This document shows, piece after piece, positions 3,193 to 62,241 of a stretch of DNA of 64,000 nt. The DNA is from Escherichia phage ETEC-TG. Positions within the stretch are counted from its first letter, which is position 1; each line of letters begins with the position of its first letter. The notes under the pieces were generated by a model. It made no database searches, was not told where the DNA came from, and worked only from the letters and a program-made list of their open reading frames with translations. The stretch lies in the sequence record OR786310.1; one strand, written 5' to 3'. The position numbers were made by a program, and so were the translations under genes.

Positions 3193-3264
3193 GGCCCTGT
3201 AGCTCAATGGGAGAGCTGTCGGCTCATAACCGATAGGTAGCTGGATCGAAACCAGCCAGGGCCA
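3193..3264 (+). tRNA. tRNA-Met or Ile2 (anticodon CAT)
   Basis: Hand-folded cloverleaf: acceptor GGCCCTG/CAGGGCC, anticodon loop CT-CAT-AA, T-loop ATCGAAA, encoded CCA. Confidence 0.7.
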
Positions 3265-3269
3265 CCAAC

Positions 3270-3341
3270 GTCTTTATGGTGTAATGGATAGCACAGGAGT
3301 CTTCTAAACTCTTAGTCAAGGTTCGATTCCTTGTAAAGACA
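3270..3341 (+). tRNA. tRNA-Arg (anticodon TCT)
   Basis: Acceptor GTCTTTA/TAAAGAC, anticodon loop CT-TCT-AA, T-loop TTCGATT, CCA follows. Confidence 0.7.
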
Positions 3342-3540
3342 CCAGAACATTTTAACATGAATTAGCTCAAGTGATTTGAACCCACTACTGATCATGGTGG
3401 CAGAGAATGAGGCAAGTATGTCAGACATTATAAACAAAGGCCACGGTTATATTAGAAGACATAAATGCTCGAAGAGCACCGTTCGTGGAGAACGGGGGTT
3501 GGTGGAGTCACCATTCATGGTAAAATGTTTTAAAAAACTA

Positions 3541-3570
3541 TTGACAACTAACATTATTTTATGTTAGATT
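3541..3570 (+). promoter_or_regulatory. sigma70-like extended -10 promoter inside the tRNA cluster
   Basis: TTGACA - 18 nt - TGtTAGATT. Confidence 0.5.
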
Positions 3571-3578
3571 ATAAGTAT

Positions 3579-3666
3579 GGAAGGGCAAATCGACGTGGCG
3601 ACGAAAACGGTCTTGAAAACCGCCGAGCTTGAAAGAGCCTTGGGAGTTCGACTCTCCCTCCTTCCG
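3579..3666 (+). tRNA. tRNA-Ser (anticodon TGA), class II
   Basis: Acceptor GGAAGGG/TCCTTCC, anticodon loop CT-TGA-AA, long variable arm, T-loop TTCGACT, CCA follows. Confidence 0.65.
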
Positions 3667-3673
3667 CCAGATT

Positions 3674-3756
3674 GGTAGATTGGTGAAATGGTAGCCACGA
3701 CAGTTTGCTAAACTGTAGTCGGAAACGGCGTGTAGGTTCGAGTCCTACATCTACCG
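3674..3756 (+). tRNA. tRNA-Ser (anticodon GCT), class II
   Basis: Acceptor GGTAGAT/ATCTACC, anticodon loop TT-GCT-AA, long variable arm, T-loop TTCGAGT, CCA follows. Confidence 0.65.
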
Positions 3757-3900
3757 CCAAGTTCTTTTTAATATAGCTTACTTTAGCAGAGTAAATCTTC
3801 GGCAAGTGGCGGTAACCACTTTACCGATAACTCATAGTTAGTGGTGTGAACACTGGCTATTTTAAAAAGAATTTAAAAAGAATTTAAATATTAGTATTTA

Positions 3901-3985
3901 GGTGAGTTAATTCCGTAGGGGTAGCGGGGCAGACTGTAAATCTGTTATCATTGCGATTCGGGTGGTTCGACTCCATCACTCACCA
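3901..3985 (+). tRNA. tRNA-Tyr (anticodon GTA), class II
   Basis: Acceptor GGTGAGT/ACTCACC, anticodon loop CT-GTA-AA, long variable arm, T-loop TTCGACT, CCA follows. Confidence 0.65.
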
Positions 3986-3994
3986 CCAAATTAA

Positions 3995-4077
3995 GATGAG
4001 TTGGCTGAATGGTTTAAGCGGCGGACTGTTAATCCGTGTTCGAAAGAACGATATAGGTTCAAATCCTATACTCATCG
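3995..4077 (+). tRNA. tRNA with class II scaffold and apparent GTT (Asn) anticodon; identity uncertain
   Basis: Acceptor GATGAGT/ACTCATC, anticodon stem GCGGA/TCCGT with loop CT-GTT-AA, 15-nt variable arm with GAAA hairpin, T-loop TTCAAAT, CCA follows. Confidence 0.5.
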
Positions 4078-4170
4078 CCAGAATTATGGACTTGTAGAGT
4101 TAAGGTAAACCCCCAGTCGCCAAGAGGCTTCTGGAATTGCAGGTATCGAATCCTGCCGAGTCCCAGCTTT

Positions 4171-4242
4171 GCTCCTATAGTATAATGGCTATTACAACGG
4201 TTTTGTAATCCGTGGATCTCTGTTCGATTCAGAGTGGGAGCA
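4171..4242 (+). tRNA. tRNA-Thr (anticodon TGT)
   Basis: Acceptor GCTCCTA/TGGGAGC, anticodon loop TT-TGT-AA, T-arm CTCTG-TTCGATT-CAGAG, CCA follows. Confidence 0.65.
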
Positions 4243-4522
4243 CCAACACAACATTAAGAGCACTGTGATTGATCGTCGTATCCTGTGCACAAGGTCTGTT
4301 CGAAAGACAGTGTTCTTAGTATTGTGTTGATCACACAAAAAAAGAGTTACCTGAAACTTGACCGGAGTAGGGTTGGATGGGGCAAAAGAAGAAGCGGCTC
4401 TCCCATCGACAGCAACGAAGAATAATATTTGACTTTGGTTTTGTATTATTTTAAGTTAGCTTACCGAACGTAGGGCTAGTCACCCAACGGGATACTCGTC
4501 ACTGTCCCACTCAATAAAACTA

Positions 4523-4552
4523 TTGACAACCAATAGTAAAATGTAGTATAGT
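4523..4552 (+). promoter_or_regulatory. sigma70-like promoter upstream of tRNA-Gly
   Basis: TTGACA - 18 nt - TATAGT. Confidence 0.5.
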
Positions 4553-4563
4553 AAAGATGTAGG

Positions 4564-4634
4564 GCGTTCTTGGTGTAGCGGTAGCATTCCGTCCTTCCAA
4601 GTCGGCGGCACGAGTTCGATCCTCGTAGAACGCT
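4564..4634 (+). tRNA. tRNA-Gly (anticodon TCC)
   Basis: Acceptor GCGTTCT/AGAACGC, anticodon loop CT-TCC-AA, T-arm ACGAG-TTCGATC-CTCGT, CCA follows. Confidence 0.65.
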
Positions 4635-4735
4635 CCAAATTATTTAATAAAGGGTTGCCAGAAAACTTTCTCTTTTACTCATGGTTTTCTCCTTCTCTCA
4701 CACCTCTTCTGGTTGCCCTTCATTAAATGATTTAT

Positions 4736-4808
4736 TGGTTTGTAGTGTAGTCCGGTAGCACACGACACTTTGACTGTCGTAGGTTTGGTTCAAATCCAGA
4801 CAGACCAG
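4736..4808 (+). tRNA. tRNA-Gln (anticodon TTG)
   Basis: Acceptor TGGTTTG/CAGACCA, anticodon stem CGACA/TGTCG with loop CT-TTG-AC, T-loop TTCAAAT, CCA follows. Confidence 0.65.
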
Positions 4809-4884
4809 CCATATAACAAAGGTGAGTCACTACCTCAAGTGTGAAGTTAAAAACGAGGAGCCGCCGAACACTTTCTTTTGCGGT

Positions 4885-4958
4885 GTACCTTTAGAATGTT
4901 ATGACGGAATTTAGCTCAGTTTGGTAGAGTGTACGCTTTGGGAGCGTATTGTCGCAGG
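4885..4958 (+). tRNA. tRNA-Pro (anticodon TGG)
   Basis: Acceptor CGGAATT/AATTCCG, anticodon stem TACGC/GCGTA with loop TT-TGG-GA, T-arm GCAGG-TTCGAAT-CCTGC, CCA follows. Confidence 0.7.
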
Positions 4959-4967
4959 TTCGAATCC

Positions 4968-5038
4968 TGCAATTCCGACCAATTAAATGTTTCGTAGTTC
5001 AATGGTAGAACCCACGACTGATAATCGTGAGATACAAG
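4968..5038 (+). tRNA. tRNA-Ile (anticodon GAT)
   Basis: Acceptor TGTTTCG/CGAAACA, anticodon stem CACGA/TCGTG with loop CT-GAT-AA, T-loop TTCGATT, CCA follows. Confidence 0.7.
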
Positions 5039-5119
5039 TTCGATTCTTGTCGAAACAACCAGTTTCCCGTTAGACTTACAGGATAAGAGTTCCACAATTT
5101 ATTGTGACGCTGGTTCGAA

Positions 5120-5195
5120 TCCAGCACGGGATACATAATAGCGGGATAGAGGAGTCTGGTCGTCCTCGCCAGTTTCATATGCTGGAGATCATTGG
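5120..5195 (+). tRNA. tRNA-Met or Ile2 (anticodon CAT), mismatched 1:72 pair
   Basis: Anticodon stem CCAGT/GCTGG with loop TT-CAT-AT, T-arm ATTGG-TTCAAAT-CCAAT, acceptor 3' TCCCGCC, CCA follows; position 1 (A) does not pair with 72 (C). Confidence 0.6.
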
Positions 5196-5333
5196 TTCAA
5201 ATCCAATTCCCGCCTCCAAATATCGCTTGCCAGCGGTATCTTTGAAGACCTTGCCTGGTTCCTTCTAAGATGGAGGGGTGCGACTCCTTAACGCACAATT
5301 ATAATAAAGCATTTCAAATTAACAGTATTTATT

Positions 5334-6720: not shown

Positions 6721-8796
6721 GTGGCAAAGAAAAAGGCAGCAGGTAGTTTAGCTGGAGTAGATATTGAAGTAAAGGCTCAACCAGGTAAACAGACTCTTGC
6801 AATGGATTTAATGCCAGAAGTTATGATTTATGGTGGTGCCGCTGGATGTGTTTCTGCTGAAACGGAATATCTTACAAAAGATGGTTGGAGGCAGATTAGT
6901 GAATATTCGGGAGAGGATATTTACCAATACAATCCTAAGAATAAGCGTTTAGAATTGGTAACACCTTATTTTGTAGAATACGATTTAAATGGAGATAACC
7001 TATACAGAATAACAAATGGTGTAGGATTATTCCAAGAACTTAGTATGGAACACCGTTTTGTATTCTATAAGAAAAAGAAATCAAAGAAACATTTCGAGAT
7101 TCTTGTAGGAGATCTTATTGCATTACAGCAAATAGGAAAACCCCTGCAAGGTTATGTAGAAAATCCATTCGGTAAACGTGTTCCTTTTAACATACCTGGT
7201 AAAAAGAGCACTTACTTAAAAATACACGAGGTTATTTCAACAGATGATAAGAAATATTGTTTTGAGACTCCAAGCAGCTATATTGTCTTTAGACGTGGCG
7301 ATCACTGCTTCGTTACTGGGAATAGCGGCAAGTCTCGTCTGCTATTGCTGAAAGCTTTAAAATACGCCTACAAAGACCCTTTGTTTGGTGGAATACTTTT
7401 CCGTAAGAACACCACTGCTCACCGTAAACCAGGTGGTCTGTTTACAGAAGCAAAACGTTTGTATCTTCCTTTACAACCACATGTAAAAGAAAGTACAATG
7501 GATATCATTTTTGAAGCCACTGGTGGTGGAACCCTCAAATTTGACCATTTGGAAAATGATAACGTAACAGCAGAAACAAACCATCAGGGTACACAGTATT
7601 CAATGGTAGGTTTTGACGAGTTAACCCACTTCACACAATATGAAATGCTCTATCTTCTGGGACGTATGCGTTCAGAGTCAGAAACAAGTTTCATGTTGTG
7701 CACATGTAACCCTGACGCAGATAGTTGGGTTTTGAATTGGGTGTTACCTTATCTTGATGAGGGTGGTTATCCTAGAGAAGATATGTGTGGTAAACAAAAA
7801 TATTTCATCATTGTTAACGATGAACCTGTTTTTGCTGACACACCTGAAGAACTGAAAGAAAAATATCCAGAAAACTGTTTCATGGAAAACCCTAATACAG
7901 GGGAGACAGTTGTTATTGAACCACAAACTTTCGTATTTATTGGTGGGACAATATTTGATAACCCAGAACTCATTAGGCTTAACCCTAATTACTTAGCACA
8001 GCTTAAATCACAAACAGCTATCAAAAGAGCACAGCTTCTGGACGGTTGTTGGTTTGCACGTATCCAGAAAGAATCTTTCTTTCAACGTGAATGGTTACAT
8101 AAAATATCTTATAAAGATGTTCCTAACAATCTTAAACTAATGCGAGCATGGGATAAAGCTGTTTCAGTTCCTACAGAAACTTACCGTTATCCAGACTATA
8201 CAACATCTGTCAAAATGGGTAAAGACCAAGATGGTAATATCTACATCTTTGGCGACTATGATTATGATGCTGTGGATGAGAAAAGTAAAATTTTCGGAAG
8301 GTTTCGAAGACTACCTGGGGAAAGGGATAACCTGATTCTAAATCAATGTAAGATTGATGGACCAGAAGTTACAGTAGTGCTTCCTAAAGACCCATCTGGT
8401 GCTGGGACAATAGAATACACAGAGTCTGCAAAGAAACTTATTCTAGAGGGTTTTGTTGTTAAACCAGATGCTATGCCAGGCAACAAGAAAAAACTTCAGC
8501 GTTTTATGCCTTTTAGTAGTGCGTGTCAAAACGGCTTTGTTTATATTGTTGAAGATTCTTTCCCTAATGTGGAAACTTTAACCCACTTTTATAAAGAATT
8601 GGAATCTTTCAATGGTGAAAGATCTACAGCCACTATTAAAGATGACATTCCCGATGCTGCTGCCTCTTGTTTTAATACTCTGTCAAAAGAGAATACTTTC
8701 AAAGCAGTAGCAATCCCTACAACAACAAATGCTCCTACAGGATACAGTAGAATGAACAGCGGATTTCACCAACCGTATAGTGTCCGTAAAAGATAA
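6721..8796 (+). CDS. terminase large subunit, interrupted by a putative mini-intein
   Basis: GTG start after AGGAGGG RBS; removing the insert reconstitutes Walker A YGGAAG|SGKS; Walker B-like MVGFDE; directly upstream of portal. Confidence 0.65.
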   Translation: MAKKKAAGSLAGVDIEVKAQPGKQTLAMDLMPEVMIYGGAAGCVSAETEYLTKDGWRQISEYSGEDIYQYNPKNKRLELVTPYFVEYDLNGDNLYRITNGVGLFQELSMEHRFVFYKKKKSKKHFEILVGDLIALQQIGKPLQGYVENPFGKRVPFNIPGKKSTYLKIHEVISTDDKKYCFETPSSYIVFRRGDHCFVTGNSGKSRLLLLKALKYAYKDPLFGGILFRKNTTAHRKPGGLFTEAKRLYLPLQPHVKESTMDIIFEATGGGTLKFDHLENDNVTAETNHQGTQYSMVGFDELTHFTQYEMLYLLGRMRSESETSFMLCTCNPDADSWVLNWVLPYLDEGGYPREDMCGKQKYFIIVNDEPVFADTPEELKEKYPENCFMENPNTGETVVIEPQTFVFIGGTIFDNPELIRLNPNYLAQLKSQTAIKRAQLLDGCWFARIQKESFFQREWLHKISYKDVPNNLKLMRAWDKAVSVPTETYRYPDYTTSVKMGKDQDGNIYIFGDYDYDAVDEKSKIFGRFRRLPGERDNLILNQCKIDGPEVTVVLPKDPSGAGTIEYTESAKKLILEGFVVKPDAMPGNKKKLQRFMPFSSACQNGFVYIVEDSFPNVETLTHFYKELESFNGERSTATIKDDIPDAAASCFNTLSKENTFKAVAIPTTTNAPTGYSRMNSGFHQPYSVRKR
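6847..7323 (+). other. putative mini-intein (159 aa, Cys43 to Asn201) in the terminase P-loop
   Basis: Begins CVSAETEYLTKDGW, internal S-x-x-H block (LSMEHRF), ends ...FVTGN with +1 Ser; no endonuclease domain. Confidence 0.55.
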
Positions 8797-27883: not shown

Positions 27884-30037
27884 ATGAAACAAGCTATATT
27901 TACTGTCACGCGAGACAAGAGAGTAAATGCGAGTTCATTTAACTACACGACTGTTGACGGAACAGCAGTCGCTGGTAGAGATTATATTGCAAAATCGGGA
28001 ACACTTGTGTTCCCTGATGATGCTGATTCTGCTACTATTGTGGTTGAAGTATTTGAACGACCAAAGAACTCAATAGATCTTAACTTCTCCCTCCAAGTTT
28101 CAGGGATTAGTCAAAATAACATGATGGTTGAAACAACCATCAATTGTATTATAACTACTATCCAAGAAAATACTACTCCAATAACTTGGACTACAAAAGA
28201 CGTTAAAATGTTCTCTCCTATGTATTGGACAATAGATTCTCAAGCAACGGAAAGTTGTTCTATTGTATCTCATGGAGACTCTTTTACTGCAAGATTTGTA
28301 AACAGAACAACAGCAGGTTTGGCAGGGGTTATCTGGAGCACAGTTGACAAATATGACCATAAAGGTGTTGGGTATTTGCCTCACACAGATTTAAGTTCAG
28401 AGAAACTTTGGTTTAAAATGGAAATTAGTCAAAACATGCCAGGTTTTAAAGAAGAACCTTTGGTGCCGACTTTGACTGTAACTCTCCTGGATAAAAGTGT
28501 TCATTATGTCAGTTTAGGATTCTACGCTTCAGATATTTCAGAAGATGGTAAAACAGCCACAATAAAGTTAGATTTTGGTAATATCTTTTCTGGCCCTAAT
28601 AATGATATTCCTTTGGATATGAGTGCTGTAGATAATATTTTCTTCTCTTTGATTACAGCAAGGTATGAAAAAATAGAAGAGGTTGTACCTATTGACAGTC
28701 AAGAGGCTTGGTTTACTTTCACTCTTCTTGAACCTACTTCTGGTTACAGTATGATGAAAGTCAGCAACCTTGTCCAGCCTGAACATGATATTCGCATGTG
28801 CACATCTTATGATGATATGTATAACCTGACTCCAGAGAGAGTTATTTATAATACATATGCACTAGGTTATCGTGGAATGATTAACCATTACAACGGAATG
28901 TCTCACTATTATGAGTTCTCATGGAACGGAACATCTTGGGCTTTAAATAGATCTGTTTTCCTGAATCCGGCTACAGAAGCTTGGCTAAATAGTTTCCATT
29001 CTATAGCAAACGAGAAGGGCTACACGATAATGAACTCTTTAAGTTTTGAATTGATGAGCACAGTTTGTCCTGTAGAATGGGTCCAGCATGATTGGAACGA
29101 TGCTCTTGCAGCAACAGGGTATGAACCTCCTAGTTATGTGTTGTCTCCAACTATTGACGAAGGTATGGAATATTTGCAAAATGTTATTAACAAAATAGCA
29201 TCTATTTCGCAAGCTAATAATATTCCAGTTGTCATTCAAATTGGTGAGCCTTGGTGGTGGTATAATACAGCAAGTAAAATGCCTTGCATATATGATTACA
29301 CTACCAAACTGGCATTCAACACAGAAACAGGCTTATTTGCACAAGATGCAGGAACAATAGATAATTATAAAACAGGAACACCGTTTGACGAATACTATGC
29401 ATTTTTGTCTCGTAAACTAGGGTTAAGAGTTACAAAGTTTGCAACAGACACTAGAGCAACTTATCCAGGAGCTAAAGTAACATTGCTGCCATTCTTACCA
29501 TCAATTATCGGCAATGGTTTAATGGAGAAAGTTAACTTTCCGTCTGATTACTACATTCCTGAAGCTTTTGATTTTTATTGTTCAGAGTGTTACGACTGGC
29601 TTCTGGAAGGTAAAATGATGAAAGCATTTGATGCAATTACCATACCACATGAAAAATTAGGTTTTGAATATTCTGATATTCACTATCTTGCAGGTTTTGT
29701 TCCAGATGCTACTCTTGCACCTTTGTATGGCTTTGATCCTGAATCAAACTACCGCACGTATCTTTGGAAAATGATTATAGGTAACATAGTGTTGAACGCC
29801 AATAAGTTCAATGGACTTACACAATATATATGGGCCTATCCTCAAATAATGCACGATTCTATCACGGTAGTTAATTCTCAATCCCAAGTTTTCTATATGG
29901 GTAACGTGCCTTTGAACGCTTATTTACAGGATATCACTCTTAAACAGGTAAATGTTGAGATTGCCACCATAAGTGGAATTACATTAGCCACTAAATCTGG
30001 AGAAGATTTAGTAACAACACAAAAATTTTATATATAG
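27884..30037 (+). CDS. tail-associated protein with N-terminal Calx-beta-like domain
   Basis: N-terminus NYTTVDGTAVAGRDYIAKSGTLVF matches Calx-beta signature by eye. Confidence 0.4.
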   Translation: MKQAIFTVTRDKRVNASSFNYTTVDGTAVAGRDYIAKSGTLVFPDDADSATIVVEVFERPKNSIDLNFSLQVSGISQNNMMVETTINCIITTIQENTTPITWTTKDVKMFSPMYWTIDSQATESCSIVSHGDSFTARFVNRTTAGLAGVIWSTVDKYDHKGVGYLPHTDLSSEKLWFKMEISQNMPGFKEEPLVPTLTVTLLDKSVHYVSLGFYASDISEDGKTATIKLDFGNIFSGPNNDIPLDMSAVDNIFFSLITARYEKIEEVVPIDSQEAWFTFTLLEPTSGYSMMKVSNLVQPEHDIRMCTSYDDMYNLTPERVIYNTYALGYRGMINHYNGMSHYYEFSWNGTSWALNRSVFLNPATEAWLNSFHSIANEKGYTIMNSLSFELMSTVCPVEWVQHDWNDALAATGYEPPSYVLSPTIDEGMEYLQNVINKIASISQANNIPVVIQIGEPWWWYNTASKMPCIYDYTTKLAFNTETGLFAQDAGTIDNYKTGTPFDEYYAFLSRKLGLRVTKFATDTRATYPGAKVTLLPFLPSIIGNGLMEKVNFPSDYYIPEAFDFYCSECYDWLLEGKMMKAFDAITIPHEKLGFEYSDIHYLAGFVPDATLAPLYGFDPESNYRTYLWKMIIGNIVLNANKFNGLTQYIWAYPQIMHDSITVVNSQSQVFYMGNVPLNAYLQDITLKQVNVEIATISGITLATKSGEDLVTTQKFYI

Positions 30038-30045
30038 GAGTAAAA

Positions 30046-32298
30046 ATGTCAACTACAATTACTAATTTACCCGAAACATCAAAAGTTAATGGTTCTGATT
30101 ACCTGGTTTTAGACCAACCTGATAAGACTGTTAAAAGCACAGTTTCCAACTTTCTTACTGACACTGGGGTGGTTTTAGCCACCCAGTTGAAAGATACAGA
30201 TGGAGCTACCAAGTATCCAGAACTTCAGATTGCACGCTGGCGAGACGAGGGAGATATCAGAGGGTGGGGCACGGAAACAAACGGTGATGTTACCGAAGCA
30301 ATCATTGAGGCGGTAGCGGCGACAAGCGGCACTATCATTGTGCCACCTGGTGACTATGTTGCCACACCTACGCTGGCCGAAGTTCCGGCTGTGCTGAAAT
30401 TGCTGTCCCGCGCTGATTTTCGTGGCAGGTTGACCATTAATCTGCCAGCTGGGACGGTCAATCTGAACGAGCAGACAGTCATAAATTCTAACAGGAGTAA
30501 TCTGTGCAAGGTCATTGGCGTAGCGCTAAACACGAGCGTTACAGGGCTTGTTTCTGTAGCTGGGTCAAGCAAGCAATATTCGATAACTCTGTCCCTGGCA
30601 GATGCCTCGCAGGTGTCAGTCGGTGACTATGCCATCTTCAGGCACGATCTGACGGGAACTGGTTTTTTCCACATACACTGCGGGGGCTGGCGGGTAACGG
30701 CTGTGTCCGGCAATAACGTGACCGTGCTCAACACATGCGTCTTGGATTCATTCCCTTCGTCAACCGTTACCGGTGGATCAGTCTCCATTATCAAGTCCGT
30801 TCTGAAATACACCGGCTGTGATGGGATTAGACCGGAGGGCGGCGACTGTATCGGAATTATTGATAATGTCGCCATCGTGGGTGATTACAACCTTGCTACC
30901 GGCGCAGGGACAATCGGTGCTCACGGCGTAATATCCTCAACACCCGTAGTAGTCACCGACGCCGCCAACGCATCCAACAACGTAGCGAATATGGCGGCAG
31001 CGCTGGCCCTGGGACGAAATATTGCAATCAGTGCCTGGGGTGAGCAAGGGCTGGCAGTGTCGGGTCGCTCTGCGCTTGTGTGTAACTTCATCGCATCCTG
31101 TGCCAACCGTAAGCGTGGTATTTATGCGGAAGGTGCTCATATACGCGGGAAATTTATGATCGCCTCCGGAAACGGAGAGGACGGCATTATTTCAGATACC
31201 ACTGGATTTGTGCAGGCTGCATATGCCGTTTGCTCGGGTAACGGATTAAACGGGTTCTGGTCAACAAACCTCTCTCTTATTGCGGCGGCAAGGGGAGTGG
31301 CTTGCTGTAACAAAACAAATGGTGTGGAGGCAAGGGGGCAGACAAGGCTCGCATTTGATCTCGGCCTTTCCTACGGAAACGTTCTAAACGGTGTCAGCGC
31401 CTCTGATGGGGGCATGATTGACTTTGATGGCGGCATGTCAAGAGACAATCTCGTTGACGGGATCGCAGCGACATACAATGCAGTAGTTGACGCGAACAAC
31501 GCCTCCAGTACCACCAATGGTCGTTACGGTACTAACGTGACCTCCGCGTGCATTATCATTTCAGGGACTGGTACTATATCTGGGAATACAGGGGCGGATG
31601 TTCGTGATAACGGCAATGGGATGGTTGTCCGACCAGACGGCACGATCTACCCATTCACTGGGGTCGCACAGGGTAATCTGTCGCTAAGAAACACCGTCAG
31701 CGGCGCGGGGGTTGACATTGTTCCTACAAGTATAGGTGACTTAATTCTGAGCTTTAAAAACTCAGCAGGCGGAACGCTTAACCCGTTATACAACTTCAAA
31801 GCCGACGGTACTCAGTACCCTCAAAATGACGCGACGCAAAGCCTTGGGCGTGCCGCTAACCGATACAATGTCGGTTTCTTCGCTGGCGGAACACAGTCAA
31901 CTTCAGATGCCACACTTAAAGACCCTATCCGGGAGTTCAATCAGGCCGAACTTAATGCAGCAATGCGAATCGCAAAAATGCTGGGTTTCTGGACATGGCT
32001 GGATGATGCCGGAAAACGGCTTCATGCAGGGACAACAGTGCAAGCGGTACTGGAGGTGCTGGAAGAAGAGGGACTCGACTGGCGTAACTATGGTTTCATC
32101 GGATTTGATGAGTGGGATGATGAATATATCCCAGTAACCATTGAGGTAGATGGCGAAGTCGTTGAAACAGGGGAAACGAAATTAGTGCGTGAGGCTGGTT
32201 CTGTCTGGCAACTGCGCGATCAGGAATTTGACCGTTTCGTTATGCGTGGACTTTCTGAAAGGCTGAGTATTATAGAAAGTAAGCTGGATTTACTGTAA
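30046..32298 (+). CDS. tailspike / receptor-binding protein with C-terminal intramolecular chaperone domain
   Basis: Gly/Asn/Val-rich beta-helix-like repeats; STSDATLKDPIREF (S620-D621) resembles the S74 chaperone autocleavage motif; body is GC-rich relative to the genome. Confidence 0.5.
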   Translation: MSTTITNLPETSKVNGSDYLVLDQPDKTVKSTVSNFLTDTGVVLATQLKDTDGATKYPELQIARWRDEGDIRGWGTETNGDVTEAIIEAVAATSGTIIVPPGDYVATPTLAEVPAVLKLLSRADFRGRLTINLPAGTVNLNEQTVINSNRSNLCKVIGVALNTSVTGLVSVAGSSKQYSITLSLADASQVSVGDYAIFRHDLTGTGFFHIHCGGWRVTAVSGNNVTVLNTCVLDSFPSSTVTGGSVSIIKSVLKYTGCDGIRPEGGDCIGIIDNVAIVGDYNLATGAGTIGAHGVISSTPVVVTDAANASNNVANMAAALALGRNIAISAWGEQGLAVSGRSALVCNFIASCANRKRGIYAEGAHIRGKFMIASGNGEDGIISDTTGFVQAAYAVCSGNGLNGFWSTNLSLIAAARGVACCNKTNGVEARGQTRLAFDLGLSYGNVLNGVSASDGGMIDFDGGMSRDNLVDGIAATYNAVVDANNASSTTNGRYGTNVTSACIIISGTGTISGNTGADVRDNGNGMVVRPDGTIYPFTGVAQGNLSLRNTVSGAGVDIVPTSIGDLILSFKNSAGGTLNPLYNFKADGTQYPQNDATQSLGRAANRYNVGFFAGGTQSTSDATLKDPIREFNQAELNAAMRIAKMLGFWTWLDDAGKRLHAGTTVQAVLEVLEEEGLDWRNYGFIGFDEWDDEYIPVTIEVDGEVVETGETKLVREAGSVWQLRDQEFDRFVMRGLSERLSIIESKLDLL

Positions 32299-57589: not shown

Positions 57590-57609
57590 GAGGGGGATTT
57601 CTCCCCCTC
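57590..57609 (-). other. GAGGGGGA/TCCCCCTC stem-loop downstream of TerD gene
   Basis: Perfect 8-bp G/C stem; similar hairpin at 39752-39770. Confidence 0.4.
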
Positions 57610-57627: not shown

Positions 57628-58230
57628 TTATGGACATTCATACCATTCTTTTTTACCACCGAAGGCCATCACCACATCGCAAATATCCAGACCAGCTTTA
57701 CCTACACCATATGCTTTCAGCTTCCATTCCCCATCTTCACGAACCAAGGAAGCCACGTGGCAGATTGTGTTACCAGCTACTTCAGGAGCCAGGAAGTCAA
57801 AATCCAGAATTTCCACATTGCGTTCGGAGTCAAAGATTTTAAGCATACCTTCAGAAGCATGACCAAAACGTTTCAGACCTGTATCATCATCAATGGTCAG
57901 AACAAAGGCAATCTCTTGTGCATCAGGAGAGATTTTAGCCAGAGTAATATCAATCTGCTCCATGCTGCCAGTCCCATCACGAACATCGTCACCAGCGAAG
58001 GTAGAACGTTCAGGATCAAACTTGTTAGCGTAGCAAACCAGATGACGTGCAGACAGCATTTCAGGATTGCCAGCGGCATTATGACGACAAACCAGTGCAC
58101 TTACATCCAGATCCAGTTTAGAATCAGATTTCCAAGAGAATTCCAGGCGCAGTTCTTTCAGAGCCGGAGCAACTTTCTTCAGGGAAATTTTTTCGCTAGA
58201 GCCTTTTTTCAGGGAAATTTTATCAGTCAT
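57628..58230 (-). CDS. terD: TerD-family protein (tellurium resistance / stress protein domain)
   Basis: Aligns by eye to E. coli TerD: N-terminal ISLKK repeats, DLDVSALVC, FVLTIDD, GEWKLKAYGVG; host-like codon usage. Confidence 0.75.
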   Translation of the reverse strand: MTDKISLKKGSSEKISLKKVAPALKELRLEFSWKSDSKLDLDVSALVCRHNAAGNPEMLSARHLVCYANKFDPERSTFAGDDVRDGTGSMEQIDITLAKISPDAQEIAFVLTIDDDTGLKRFGHASEGMLKIFDSERNVEILDFDFLAPEVAGNTICHVASLVREDGEWKLKAYGVGKAGLDICDVVMAFGGKKEWYECP

Positions 58231-58245: not shown

Positions 58246-58515
58246 TTATTTAAGTGTAATACCAGTTACAGTCAATTCTACTTCCAAAAGCTTAGATGTG
58301 TTTTGGATTGATACTAATTGTGCATGATGGTTTAGTTCTACAGCGGAATAATCATTCTCCCCATCGTCTACTTTTAAATAAACAATGATTTCACTAAGGT
58401 CTAAACCATTTTCGTCAAATGCATTTTCATAGACGAAAGTATCTCCTACATCCAAATCTTTAATGGTAAGGCATCGTTTATTTACTTTTTGCTCATCAAT
58501 TTCGAAGTTTAACAC
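58246..58515 (-). CDS. small conserved protein, paralog of 59537-59815
   Basis: Shares DLDVGDTF and TVTGITLK motifs with the paralog. Confidence 0.4.
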   Translation of the reverse strand: MLNFEIDEQKVNKRCLTIKDLDVGDTFVYENAFDENGLDLSEIIVYLKVDDGENDYSAVELNHHAQLVSIQNTSKLLEVELTVTGITLK

Positions 58516-58744
58516 TTCTTCCTCCTAATGTTATCTCCGGTTTGTATATACGAAGAATTATAGCATTTTCATTTTCTTTGTCAACCCATTCTTCATAATC
58601 GGGCCATACATGAATCTCTACTCTACTTACAATATCTTCCATTCGCACAGTCCCAATGAAATACTCTTTGAGACTGCGCATAATGAAAGCTTCTCTCTCG
58701 CGCCAATAATTTTCTACGACTTGAGAGGCAAGCTCGTCGATCAT
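58496..58744 (-). CDS. hypothetical small protein
   Basis: ORF track; coupled to neighbours. Confidence 0.3.
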   Translation of the reverse strand: MIDELASQVVENYWREREAFIMRSLKEYFIGTVRMEDIVSRVEIHVWPDYEEWVDKENENAIILRIYKPEITLGGRSVKLRN

Positions 58745-59535
58745 TTTTTAGCACCTACTTTAACAACCCACTCTCCGAACTCTTCAGATAAAAGTTTGTC
58801 ATAAAGCTCTGAATCTGTCAAGTCTAAATCTTTAATGCCAATAAAACCAACATTATCATAAGCATTTGCCAGTTCTTTCAGGAAGCCAAACTTCTCATTA
58901 CCAACGCCAACCATGAACCAATAAATAGGTTTATTCTTATTCTCTTCAATAAGACGACGAACAGCACTAGGATCACCATTCTCACCATCCGTCTGGAAGA
59001 ATACAACACCAGGGGTAACGTCAGCACCTGGTTCAGATACAGCTACAACTTTTTCACGCTCTACAGACACTGTTTCAGTTTTACCAAGCAGACGATTAAA
59101 GAAGCCTTTCTTTGGAGCCTCCTCTTGTACCACTTGTTTAGTGGTAATATATTTGGTAACAGTGCCAAAATACTCATCGTAGATATCTGCCATTACAGGG
59201 GCGTAATTTGTTCCACCTCCGATACGAACATTGCGCATACATTTACCAACATAGTCATCGTAAACGTCTGCTGTTGCTGGAGTAAGCTCTTGGGAACTCG
59301 TATTAAAGGCCCACATATCAATTTGTTGATTATCGTCGAACAGCATACCAAAAGGAAGCAGTTTACCTACAAAATCACTCACTACCCCACTAGAATATAG
59401 ACCATGCATACTACCAGAAATATCTAGAGCACATGCTACACGAAGAACAATCTTACCTTCATTCAGGTTCTTATTCTTTTTCAGAGAGAAAGCAAGGTTT
59501 TCTTGACGTTTTTTCAGGCTGATTTTCTCGGACAT
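58741..59535 (-). CDS. vWA-domain protein with TerD-like N-terminal ISLKK segment (TerY-like)
   Basis: MIDAS motif DISGSM, downstream GGGTNY and TDGENGD; N-terminus MSEKISLKK parallels TerD N-terminus. Confidence 0.6.
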   Translation of the reverse strand: MSEKISLKKRQENLAFSLKKNKNLNEGKIVLRVACALDISGSMHGLYSSGVVSDFVGKLLPFGMLFDDNQQIDMWAFNTSSQELTPATADVYDDYVGKCMRNVRIGGGTNYAPVMADIYDEYFGTVTKYITTKQVVQEEAPKKGFFNRLLGKTETVSVEREKVVAVSEPGADVTPGVVFFQTDGENGDPSAVRRLIEENKNKPIYWFMVGVGNEKFGFLKELANAYDNVGFIGIKDLDLTDSELYDKLLSEEFGEWVVKVGAKK

Positions 59536-59536
59536 A

Positions 59537-59815
59537 TTATTTCTCCTTCTTAAGTGTAATATTGGTAACTTCTAAATCTACTTCCACCATATTTGTATCT
59601 GGTGGGATGCAATGAGTATAGCCTCGTTGTGCTAGTGATCCATTAATACAAATCGCACTGTTTGTGGAATTTTTAATGAACACCAAGTTATGGTAGGTAT
59701 CCAACCCTGCGTCTTTATAGGCATCATAATACATGAATGTGGCCCCTACGTCAAGATCTTCGAAAGCAATAGGTAAATCCTGACTTTTTTCTTCTTGAAT
59801 ATTGAATCTAAACAT
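59537..59815 (-). CDS. small conserved protein, paralog of 58246-58515 (start at ATG 59815)
   Basis: GAGGAGG RBS before the internal Met; DLDVGATF and VDLEVTNITLKK align with paralog. Confidence 0.4.
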   Translation of the reverse strand: MFRFNIQEEKSQDLPIAFEDLDVGATFMYYDAYKDAGLDTYHNLVFIKNSTNSAICINGSLAQRGYTHCIPPDTNMVEVDLEVTNITLKKEK

Positions 59816-60371
59816 GCATACCTCCTCTACCAATTTTGAAGCCCAAATCGTAAGCTTCCTTAGTGATCTTTTGTAACTCACTTATAGGAAGTGTTACAAG
59901 AGGATCATCTTCTTCAATTTCCATCTTGTCATCTTCTGTTTCAATGAGAGTATTATGCACTTTGTGATAAGGGTTGTCAACACGTTTAAACTTATTCTTT
60001 TCTGTGCTGAAAAAACAATCTGGATCTTCTTCACCATCACCCCAACCTTGGTTAGGATCTCCGTCAGATTGTTCTGTAGGGATTTCACCTGTAAAGTACT
60101 CTTCCAGCACCATAGCAATACCGTCCCTTGGATTTGAGGAATGCATTAAATCACAAACCTTACCCCAATCCATAGCCCATTCGAACCGTTCACGAACGCC
60201 ATTTTCATCCTCCTTTCCAGAGAAAACACAACCATAACTATCATAGTTGCCATACATCTCTTCAATAACAACACCGTCCTTCAAAAGAAAGAGATAACAA
60301 GGTGATCCGTCGAAAGAAGTAGAAAGGGCAGCTTTGCCCGATTCTTTGCACAAAAAGCTAAAACAACCCAT
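59808..60371 (-). CDS. hypothetical protein (acidic, Cys-containing)
   Basis: ORF track; in the Ter-like operon. Confidence 0.35.
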   Translation of the reverse strand: MGCFSFLCKESGKAALSTSFDGSPCYLFLLKDGVVIEEMYGNYDSYGCVFSGKEDENGVRERFEWAMDWGKVCDLMHSSNPRDGIAMVLEEYFTGEIPTEQSDGDPNQGWGDGEEDPDCFFSTEKNKFKRVDNPYHKVHNTLIETEDDKMEIEEDDPLVTLPISELQKITKEAYDLGFKIGRGGMHV

Positions 60372-60934: not shown

Positions 60935-61132
60935 TTACTCCTCCTCCTCATTGAAGTCAATATCTGCAAGGAGTTCGAATTTACGGAAGTTACGACAACC
61001 TTCATAAATATAACAATCACGACAAACTGCTAGAACACTTGGGGGATATATGCCTCCCATCGGTGCGAATCGTTTTTCGTCATCATAACGGACACCAATG
61101 TCTTCATCAATTATATAGATACGGATTCTCAT
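60935..61132 (-). CDS. small Cys-rich protein
   Basis: CRDCYIYEGC motif; acidic C-terminus. Confidence 0.3.
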   Translation of the reverse strand: MRIRIYIIDEDIGVRYDDEKRFAPMGGIYPPSVLAVCRDCYIYEGCRNFRKFELLADIDFNEEEE

Positions 61133-62241
61133 TTACCAAGCCCTCGTTTCACAGCAGCTACCATCCCGTCTTCCAGAGATTGAACTTCATTAATATAATC
61201 AACACGAGCAGCACGGGCTTCCGTATTGATGCGGTTAGTTTCTTCCAGCATCTTAACCAAGTTTTCCTGATCGTGACGCAGAGTTTCAATATCCAACACT
61301 TGACGGTTAGCCAGTGCTGCTGCTTCGATCTGATTCTGTGTGGCAAGATCGCTACCCAGTTTAATTGCCAGGTTAAATTCATCAAGAACGTTATTCTGCG
61401 TCTCTGCTGCTTTCATTTGACGTAAGCTCTCGATATACATTGAGAAGTTAGCAGAGTAAGCAGGAATAACATTATTTACTATGTTACGCGCAGATCGCAT
61501 TAAGCTTGCAGAAACTTTTTGCATACCTTGTACACGCGGTCCCATTTGGACACACAGTAGGCGCAATGCTTTTAAATCTGCAATACGAATCTCCAGAAGA
61601 TCCAAAGTATCTCGGATCACTTGTCGCTGTTCTACTGCATCTTCTGGAAGAGCAGCCAAAGCTTGTTCTTCTTTTTCATAGGTTGCTGTTAGAAGCTGCA
61701 TATCTCGGTTCAAACTTGCAGCATATTGTCCAATAGCTTGATGTAGCTTTTCAAGATATACCAAGGAATCTTCTTCTTTGCGAATATCCATTTGAAGGTT
61801 CTTTACCAACTCTTCAATACGGTTATTAACATTATCAAACTCCCCGAACAGGTCTTCTTTCATACCCATAACTTTTTTAATGAGTTTAGTAATACCCTTG
61901 CTTTGTTTAATAGAGTTTGGATCAAGTTGTTTTGCCTGTTTAATCAAAGCTGTAAGTCGTTCACTCATCTGATCGCCTTGATTACTACGTTGATGTTTTA
62001 ACACCTCGGCATTCAAGGAACGCAAGGTTGTTCCTGCCTCTGCCCCAATCTCTTCAATCTCTTGTCGGGTCATAGAAGGCAAAACTGGAACTTCTTGCGG
62101 TGCCGCTGGTGCATAAACAGGACTGGCATCTAACACGCTTGGAGCGAATACAGATTTACTTGCATCTGTTGTTGCAGCGAATACACTCATTTCAGACTTC
62201 TTCTGACCACCAGTAGCTGCTTTTAAAAATGGACTTGTCAT
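61129..62241 (-). CDS. TelA/KlaB-like helical protein (tentative)
   Basis: 370 aa, predominantly helical, same operon as TerD and vWA proteins; family assignment from size, composition and context only. Confidence 0.35.
   Translation of the reverse strand: MTSPFLKAATGGQKKSEMSVFAATTDASKSVFAPSVLDASPVYAPAAPQEVPVLPSMTRQEIEEIGAEAGTTLRSLNAEVLKHQRSNQGDQMSERLTALIKQAKQLDPNSIKQSKGITKLIKKVMGMKEDLFGEFDNVNNRIEELVKNLQMDIRKEEDSLVYLEKLHQAIGQYAASLNRDMQLLTATYEKEEQALAALPEDAVEQRQVIRDTLDLLEIRIADLKALRLLCVQMGPRVQGMQKVSASLMRSARNIVNNVIPAYSANFSMYIESLRQMKAAETQNNVLDEFNLAIKLGSDLATQNQIEAAALANRQVLDIETLRHDQENLVKMLEETNRINTEARAARVDYINEVQSLEDGMVAAVKRGLGK

Follow-up and report, generated by a model that had tools for sequence, protein, structure and literature searches.

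Two diverged copies of a small, predicted SH3-like protein precede the vWA and TerD genes of a phage Ter module and may be optional accessories of that pair

In Escherichia phage ETEC-TG (sequence record OR786310.1), two small open reading frames (ORFs) lie next to two genes of a phage Ter module, and the locus raises the question of whether these ORFs are duplicated genes and what they do beside their neighbours. We analysed a 64,000-nucleotide stretch of this record, hereafter the window. ORF-A (58246..58515, minus strand; 89 aa) stands just upstream of terD, and ORF-B (59537..59815, minus strand; 92 aa) just upstream of a gene for a vWA-TerF-like protein. The initial annotation had described this placement, with which the coordinates and the Pfam assignments agree; it had also regarded the ORFs as paralogs and suggested, from the repeated small-gene-plus-effector layout, that they are dedicated chaperones, regulators or antitoxin-like partners. 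Our analysis indicates that A and B are diverged paralogs, and we tentatively favour the role of an optional accessory of the vWA/TerD pair.

The relationship between A and B was evident by several comparisons. Pairwise BLASTP aligned them without a gap across the full 89 residues (34% identity, 49% positives) at a significant E value of 5e-14. Reciprocal phmmer searches with A and B against the 594 six-frame ORFs of the window gave E values of 4.7e-10 and 1.7e-10. In addition, the two ORFs matched the same PHROGs v4 family, phrog_11278, from end to end, A with an E value of 7e-45 (residues 1-89 of the 92-position profile) and B with 3.5e-50 (1-92 of 92). The family is listed as of unknown function and nothing is recorded for it; we refer to it here as S. 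BLASTP, reciprocal phmmer and the shared family thus bear out the proposed paralogy, and the motifs quoted in its support (DLDVGDTF and DLDVGATF, and VELTVTGITLK) are present. No third paralog was detected among the 594 six-frame ORFs by hidden Markov model (HMM) and phmmer searches, the next best E value being 0.17. GenBank records carry hypothetical proteins annotated at coordinates equivalent to A and B.

ORF-A begins with GTG behind an AGGAGG Shine-Dalgarno site, and the same start position is an ATG in phage phiWec179. The mechanical ORF of B extends to a GTG at 59881. The start at ATG 59815 is nevertheless supported, because a GGAGG Shine-Dalgarno site lies 5 nt upstream of it, the orthologs are 89-92 aa long, and phiWec179 uses the unchanged start position although it lacks the gene that lies upstream of B in the window. 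ORF-A appears to be the first cistron of an A-TerD unit and ORF-B that of a B-vWA unit, and the genes are tightly packed. A single nucleotide lies between the stop codon of B and the ATG of vWA, whose Shine-Dalgarno site is formed by the C-terminal KKEK codons of B (AAGAAGGAGAAA); 15 nt separate the stop codon of A from the ATG of terD. A detail beyond the initial annotation is an 82-aa gene between vWA and A that overlaps both neighbours, by 4 nt at the vWA stop and by 20 nt at the A start.

The evolution of both ORFs is that of protein-coding genes. The ratio of nonsynonymous to synonymous substitution rates (dN/dS) of B was 0.20 between the window and phi92 gp174 and 0.35 between the window and phiWec179; between phiWec179 and PsgM04F it was 0.13 for A and 0.11 for B, compared with 0.05 for TerD. 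A length of 87-93 aa, the frame and the core positions persist in S clades that share only 22-35% identity. These core positions are M1, F4, an L..G(D/E)TF motif, a GLD motif and a C-terminal V.V.L.V..I strand. One could argue that the ORFs are untranslated and that their similarity is a relic of duplicated DNA, as the literature search turned up no proteomic, ribosome-profiling or transcript data for A or B. We consider this extremely improbable in view of the dN/dS values well under 1, the frame, length and start kept intact across clades down to ~25% identity, the strong Shine-Dalgarno sites on both ORFs and the confident predicted fold. As far as sequence can show, A and B are real genes.

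A and B matched nothing in Pfam, NCBIfam, PADLOC or PDB sequences; at E<=1, Pfam yielded only a sub-threshold DUF5006 and PDB sequences yielded nothing. When 1.84 billion representative proteins were searched with a profile of the family, 39 matches were returned, of which the genuine ones were standalone proteins of 54-93 aa, and no S fusion or bacterial homolog was found in that set. The remaining matches were giant repeat proteins, mostly DUF11-/cadherin-like and in one case (P0035) an ankyrin-type repeat protein, and were hit because the score of a short VGDTLTY-type motif is summed over many repeats. Homology of S to the DUF11/cadherin-like Ig repeats was therefore rejected, as hhalign gave a probability of 8.4% and the predicted fold is SH3-like and not Ig-like.

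The structure prediction called for in the initial annotation yielded a confident SH3-like fold. Five AlphaFold2 models of A, built with a 28-sequence alignment, were all confident, with a predicted local distance difference test (pLDDT) score of 83-87; the best had a pLDDT of 86.9 and a predicted template modelling score of 0.79. In the predicted structure S is a five-stranded small beta-barrel that can be superposed on known SH3-like, KOW or Tudor domains. In BFVD its structure is closest to small, uncharacterised proteins encoded by unrelated phages. The S proteins are all acidic (isoelectric point 4.3-5.4, net charge -2 to -11), A being the most acidic at -11. S might control its own unit as a regulator, binding nucleic acid or RNA polymerase much as Tudor, KOW or DtxR-type SH3-like domains do. 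A nucleic-acid-binding regulator is disfavoured by the strong negative charge, and S matches no curated family by sequence; we rate this role as quite unlikely. The SH3-like systems available for comparison include FeoA and the FeoA-like C-terminal SH3 domain of DtxR, IdeR and MntR. S did not match the FeoA family (PF04023) by sequence, and only the position of its gene beside a partner is analogous to FeoA.

The distribution of S was determined by tblastn. S occurs in 126 phage records, all of Stephanstirmvirinae or near-identical records; close orthologs of both A and B are found in 64 records, and diverged versions of both in the lineage of phiWec179 and PsgM04F. The phi92 protein gp174 is an ortholog of B with 63-65% identity. 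Among 185,579 bacterial and archaeal species, each represented by one genome, the sole S match was a phage contig binned into a metagenome-assembled genome (MAG). This contig (JAEZZU010000159.1, Proteobacteria bacterium OH_PFB_59; locus L027) is 18.6 kb long, encodes a B protein 97% identical to that of the window and is most likely a Phapecoctavirus fragment in a bacterial MAG bin. Aside from it, the S family was found only in phages or phage-like contigs.

At every locus examined, S adjoins the vWA-TerF-like gene and/or terD, including loci with rearranged gene orders and with S identity down to ~25-30%. The order S(B), vWA, 82-aa gene, S(A), TerD is shared by the window, phiWec179, PsgM04F and L016. 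Other phages have a single S for both effectors: it precedes vWA in phi92 (gp174-gp173-gp172) and Klebsiella phage 05F01, and the order S, vWA, TerD also occurs in L019 and L021, whereas it lies between the two effector genes in L006-L010, which are five divergent metagenomic contigs, and in the IMG/VR locus L020. The metagenomic contig L015 carries three copies in the order S-S-vWA-80aa-S-TerD (6728-8582), with two B-type lineages in tandem and an A-type copy preceding TerD; TerC and PRTase_3 are encoded further upstream. In a neighbour-joining tree, which rests on ~90 aligned residues and is indicative only, the A and B clades were sisters, the 05F01 group fell outside them, and the type of divergent phages with S between the effectors was the outgroup. 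A Band_7 (SPFH) gene (2095-2574) directly follows TerD in one of these divergent phages (L006); SPFH proteins are associates of bacterial Ter systems.

Each paralog is preceded by a promoter-like site. P_A (58557..58584, minus strand) lies inside the 82-aa gene and reads TTGACA-16-TATAAT, matching the consensus at 12/12 positions, and it carries the TG of an extended -10; 41 nt separate the end of its -10 element from the GTG of A. A 12/12 site is also present in phiWec179 (L003), PsgM04F (L005), L015 and L016. Around P_A, the synonymous sites of the 82-aa gene are near saturation (dS ~1) and the neighbouring amino acids differ, while a rare ATA codon is kept inside the -10 element. P_B (59952..59980, minus strand; TTGACA-17-CATAAT, 11/12) lies inside the 187-aa gene upstream of B, and the distance from the end of its -10 element to the ATG of B is 136 nt. 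The site is found at equal distance in phi92 (L002), L005, L015, L016 and L021. The 187-aa gene is deleted in phiWec179, yet the promoter-like site inside it is retained there as TTGACA-17-GATAAT. In the outgroup phages a 10/12 site lies 57 nt before S, within the 3' end of vWA, and in phi92, which has no A copy, a 10/12 site lies in the vWA-terD spacer. No good promoter site was seen before S in 05F01, L020 and L019, for the last of which the start coordinate is an estimate. For comparison, among random 200-nt windows taken from this strand, only 8.5% reached 10 matches, 1.5% reached 11 and 0.2% reached 12.

Given these conserved sigma-70-type sites before B and A, we infer two early units for the host RNA polymerase, P_B-B-vWA-82aa and P_A-A-TerD. 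A GC-rich hairpin (57590..57609, minus strand; 8-bp stem, GAAA loop, -17.2 kcal/mol, z = -2.5) lies 19 nt past the terD stop and could be where the transcription unit ends. It is followed by no T-run, and the terminator scan did not call it. The conserved promoter-like site ahead of each paralog appears to be new here.

The vWA gene has a broader range than S. It was found in 209 phage records, and the counts per organism are consistent with these including the 126 S records. No S was found within 3-3.5 kb of vWA in Citrobacter phage Tr1, Klebsiella phage KP13-16, Caulobacter phage CcrPW, the faecal contig L014, or the loci L017, L018 and L022; in Tr1, no S gene was found in the regions checked (1-50 kb and 57.5-64.3 kb). 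The vWA identity in these S-less phages was 67% for Tr1, 69% for L017 and 65% for L018. TerD beside vWA was confirmed or annotated in five of the seven S-less loci, namely Tr1, KP13-16, CcrPW, L017 and L022, and L018 has vWA without S nearby. The effectors therefore work without S in these relatives, which argues against an obligate chaperone or antitoxin.

A type II antitoxin would co-occur constantly with its partner, and vWA is without a nearby S in these seven loci (L011, L012, L013, L014, L017, L018 and L022). It would also lie beside a toxin. The neighbours of S are TerD (PF02342) and the vWA-TerF-like protein (PF10138), with no PADLOC match, and neither is a known toxin according to the Pfam family descriptions and PMC7824862. 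VapX, an SH3-like type II antitoxin, is not a close parallel: the partners of S are not toxins, S is dispensable in relatives, and the two share no sequence similarity. In the single-copy phages, moreover, one effector always lacks an upstream S. It is thus very unlikely that S neutralises or chaperones the adjacent vWA and TerD proteins in an obligate manner, and this part of the initial annotation is not upheld. The repeated small-gene-plus-effector layout itself is real and conserved, and the promoter-like sites strengthen it; the one-to-one dedication of each small gene to its neighbour does not hold in the single-copy phages.

The reading we tentatively prefer, at a level short of a firm conclusion, is that S is a facultative, protein-binding accessory (an adaptor or modulator) of the vWA/TerD pair, whose copies specialised after duplication. 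In its favour count the paralogy and coding status of A and B, the contact of S with vWA and/or TerD at every locus read, across four arrangements and 1-3 copies, the distribution confined to phages, the conserved promoter-like sites, the tight packing of the genes described above, the acidity of all S proteins and the invariant MIDAS residues of vWA. Several observations weigh against it. The pair persists without a nearby S in the relatives just named; synteny inside a single phage lineage argues only weakly for functional coupling; and P_A and P_B are consensus matches backed by conservation, from which their firing is predicted. In addition, the evolutionary rate of S far exceeds that of TerD and is also above that of vWA, and the Asp of the GLD motif is replaced in P0020 (GLN), P0042 (GLS) and L020 (GTID). 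Fast evolution and variable copy number would also fit an arms-race or host-directed protein.

The last point leads to another explanation, in which S is a small early protein with a task of its own, for example in host takeover or anti-defence, and its promoter-plus-gene cassette is merely co-transcribed with the Ter genes. Each S copy indeed stands directly behind its own promoter-like site, the copy number varies from 0 to 3, the position is variable, and B-type lineages are in tandem in L015. The fast evolution and acidity of S resemble those of many phage inhibitor proteins, its BFVD neighbours come from unrelated phages, and the effectors persist without it. What speaks for a link to the Ter genes is that S remains in contact with vWA and/or TerD at every locus examined, even where the locus is rearranged or diverged, and that the promoter ahead of S would also drive the downstream Ter gene. 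We therefore regard an independent protein as possible, though on the doubtful side.

The vWA-TerF-like protein (58741..59535, minus strand; 264 aa; PF10138, 1.6e-37) has an intact metal ion-dependent adhesion site (MIDAS) motif, D38-x-S40-x-S42, T109 and D183, that is invariant in 8 phage homologs. The residues thus follow the D-x-S-x-S ... T ... D pattern of a putative metal site. TerD (57628..58230, minus strand; 200 aa; PF02342, 3.2e-28) is a TerD-domain protein. The vWA and TerD proteins start with near-identical basic peptides, MSEKISLKKRQENLAFSLKK (59535-59460, minus strand) and MTDKISLKKGSSEKISLKK (58230-58170, minus strand), with the common N-terminal pattern M[ST][ED]KISLKK...SLKK. 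In vWA the peptide is not part of the domain defined by Pfam, and it does not vary among the phage homologs, those of S-less phages included. No correlation was seen between the presence of S and this basic N-terminal extension, which the S-less Tr1 and KP13-16 keep.

If S is a facultative accessory, a mechanism can be proposed. The diverged paralogs A and B would be optional components of the vWA/TerD section of the module, each produced along with, and ahead of, one effector. S might dock onto vWA and/or TerD by protein-protein binding, which is the usual mode of SH3-like domains, and the docked S could tune the assembly, localisation or activity of vWA/TerD. The two copies would have specialised after duplication. 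Three places are candidates for contact: the GLD loop, which is nearly invariant in S, the MIDAS of the vWA protein, and the basic KISLKK peptide near the N-terminus of both vWA and TerD. A bolder version supposes that the S proteins are dedicated SH3-like adaptors, A for TerD and B for vWA, that physically join TerD, a calcium-binding protein, to the MIDAS-bearing vWA in a phage-controlled device for envelope stress or superinfection exclusion. We think this version unlikely; if it were true, no specificity or assembly factor of a Ter system would have been identified before S.

Within 51-64 kb of the window, every ORF taken to be a gene is on the minus strand. In transcription order, the local genes encode an SprT-like protein, TelA, four proteins of unknown function (65, 57, 132 and 187 aa), ORF-B, the vWA-TerF-like protein, the 82-aa protein, ORF-A and TerD; past terD come the GC-rich hairpin and then a SleB-type endolysin. 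The SprT-like gene (62828-62238, minus strand) was assigned by Pfam at 4.2e-9, and Hydrolase_2 is also among the local Pfam assignments (1.9e-17). The TelA-like protein (61129..62241, minus strand; PF05816, 3.2e-33; phrog_5890) is the upstream member of the phage Ter module, and the TerD, vWA-TerF-like and TelA genes are thus co-located in the window. The 82-aa gene (58496..58744, minus strand; phrog_22387, unknown function) contains P_A and, in the loci examined, occurs only in genomes that also carry an A copy. The 187-aa protein (59808-60371, minus strand; phrog_14928) has a conserved N-terminus, MGCFSFLCKESG, and no family match. No match was found for the 82-, 132- and 187-aa neighbours in Pfam, NCBIfam, PADLOC or PDB sequences. 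A larger duplication, in which the 82-aa gene and A would together have been copied from B and the 3' portion of the 187-aa gene, was considered and rejected (BLASTP E value 0.056, hhalign probability 1.4%, no DNA similarity).

Window positions 57.5-62.3 kb share 99.5% identity with Escherichia phage dw-ec and 98.6% with phAPEC8, and in 64 phage records at least 80% of this region is spanned by one match. The window is therefore assigned to a large lytic E. coli myovirus, a phAPEC8-like Phapecoctavirus (subfamily Stephanstirmvirinae). Three records with other host labels, MG065650 (Campylobacter phage B15), OP562383 (Acinetobacter phage ABPW7) and NC_047994 (Klebsiella phage ZCKP1), match this Phapecoctavirus at 97-99%, the figures for B15 and ZCKP1 referring to protein B and otherwise to DNA. 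OR584014 (Pseudomonas phage PsgM04F) is of the phiWec179-type lineage, with B 53% identical. The non-E. coli host labels of these GenBank records look doubtful. Elsewhere in the window, ten tRNA genes (Met, Arg, Ser, Asn, Thr, Gly, Gln, Pro, Ile and Met) are clustered at 3193-5218 on the plus strand, and a 2-kb block at 30001-32000 has a GC content of 0.506 against ~0.39 elsewhere. The sign of the GC skew flips near 44 kb, which may mark the switch from plus- to minus-strand genes; gene strands were read in 51-64 kb.

Ter systems (TerD, vWA/TerF, TelA and TerC) are widespread in bacteria and large phages, and their mechanism is poorly understood. Phage Ter modules comprising TerD, TerC, TerF-type vWA and TelA occur in jumbo and related phages and have been proposed to serve competition with superinfecting phages and stress tolerance, according to the account of Iyer et al. 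2021 (PMC7824862). The window resembles these modules in its SprT-like, TelA, vWA-TerF-like and TerD genes, to which L015 adds TerC and PRTase_3. It differs from them in the S paralogs, as the excerpts of that account contain no small SH3-like component, and in the apparent division of its vWA/TerD part into two units, each led by a promoter and headed by an S paralog. The annotation and literature searched held nothing on the vWA/TerD linkage of S, its predicted fold, the A/B split or the promoters, and the literature search returned nothing on S, phi92 gp174 or the expression of Phapecoctavirus Ter genes. What appears to be new, judged from sequence comparison, is thus a phage Ter module laid out behind two putative promoters, in which a putative accessory component not described before is present in duplicate. 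The conserved consensus promoters predict early expression of the module by the host RNA polymerase. If S were unrelated to Ter function, it would still be a fast-evolving, acidic early phage protein suited to host-target screening. Beside vWA and TerD, S would offer a cheap experimental handle on how the module assembles, as a pull-down bait, a deletion target or a co-folding partner.

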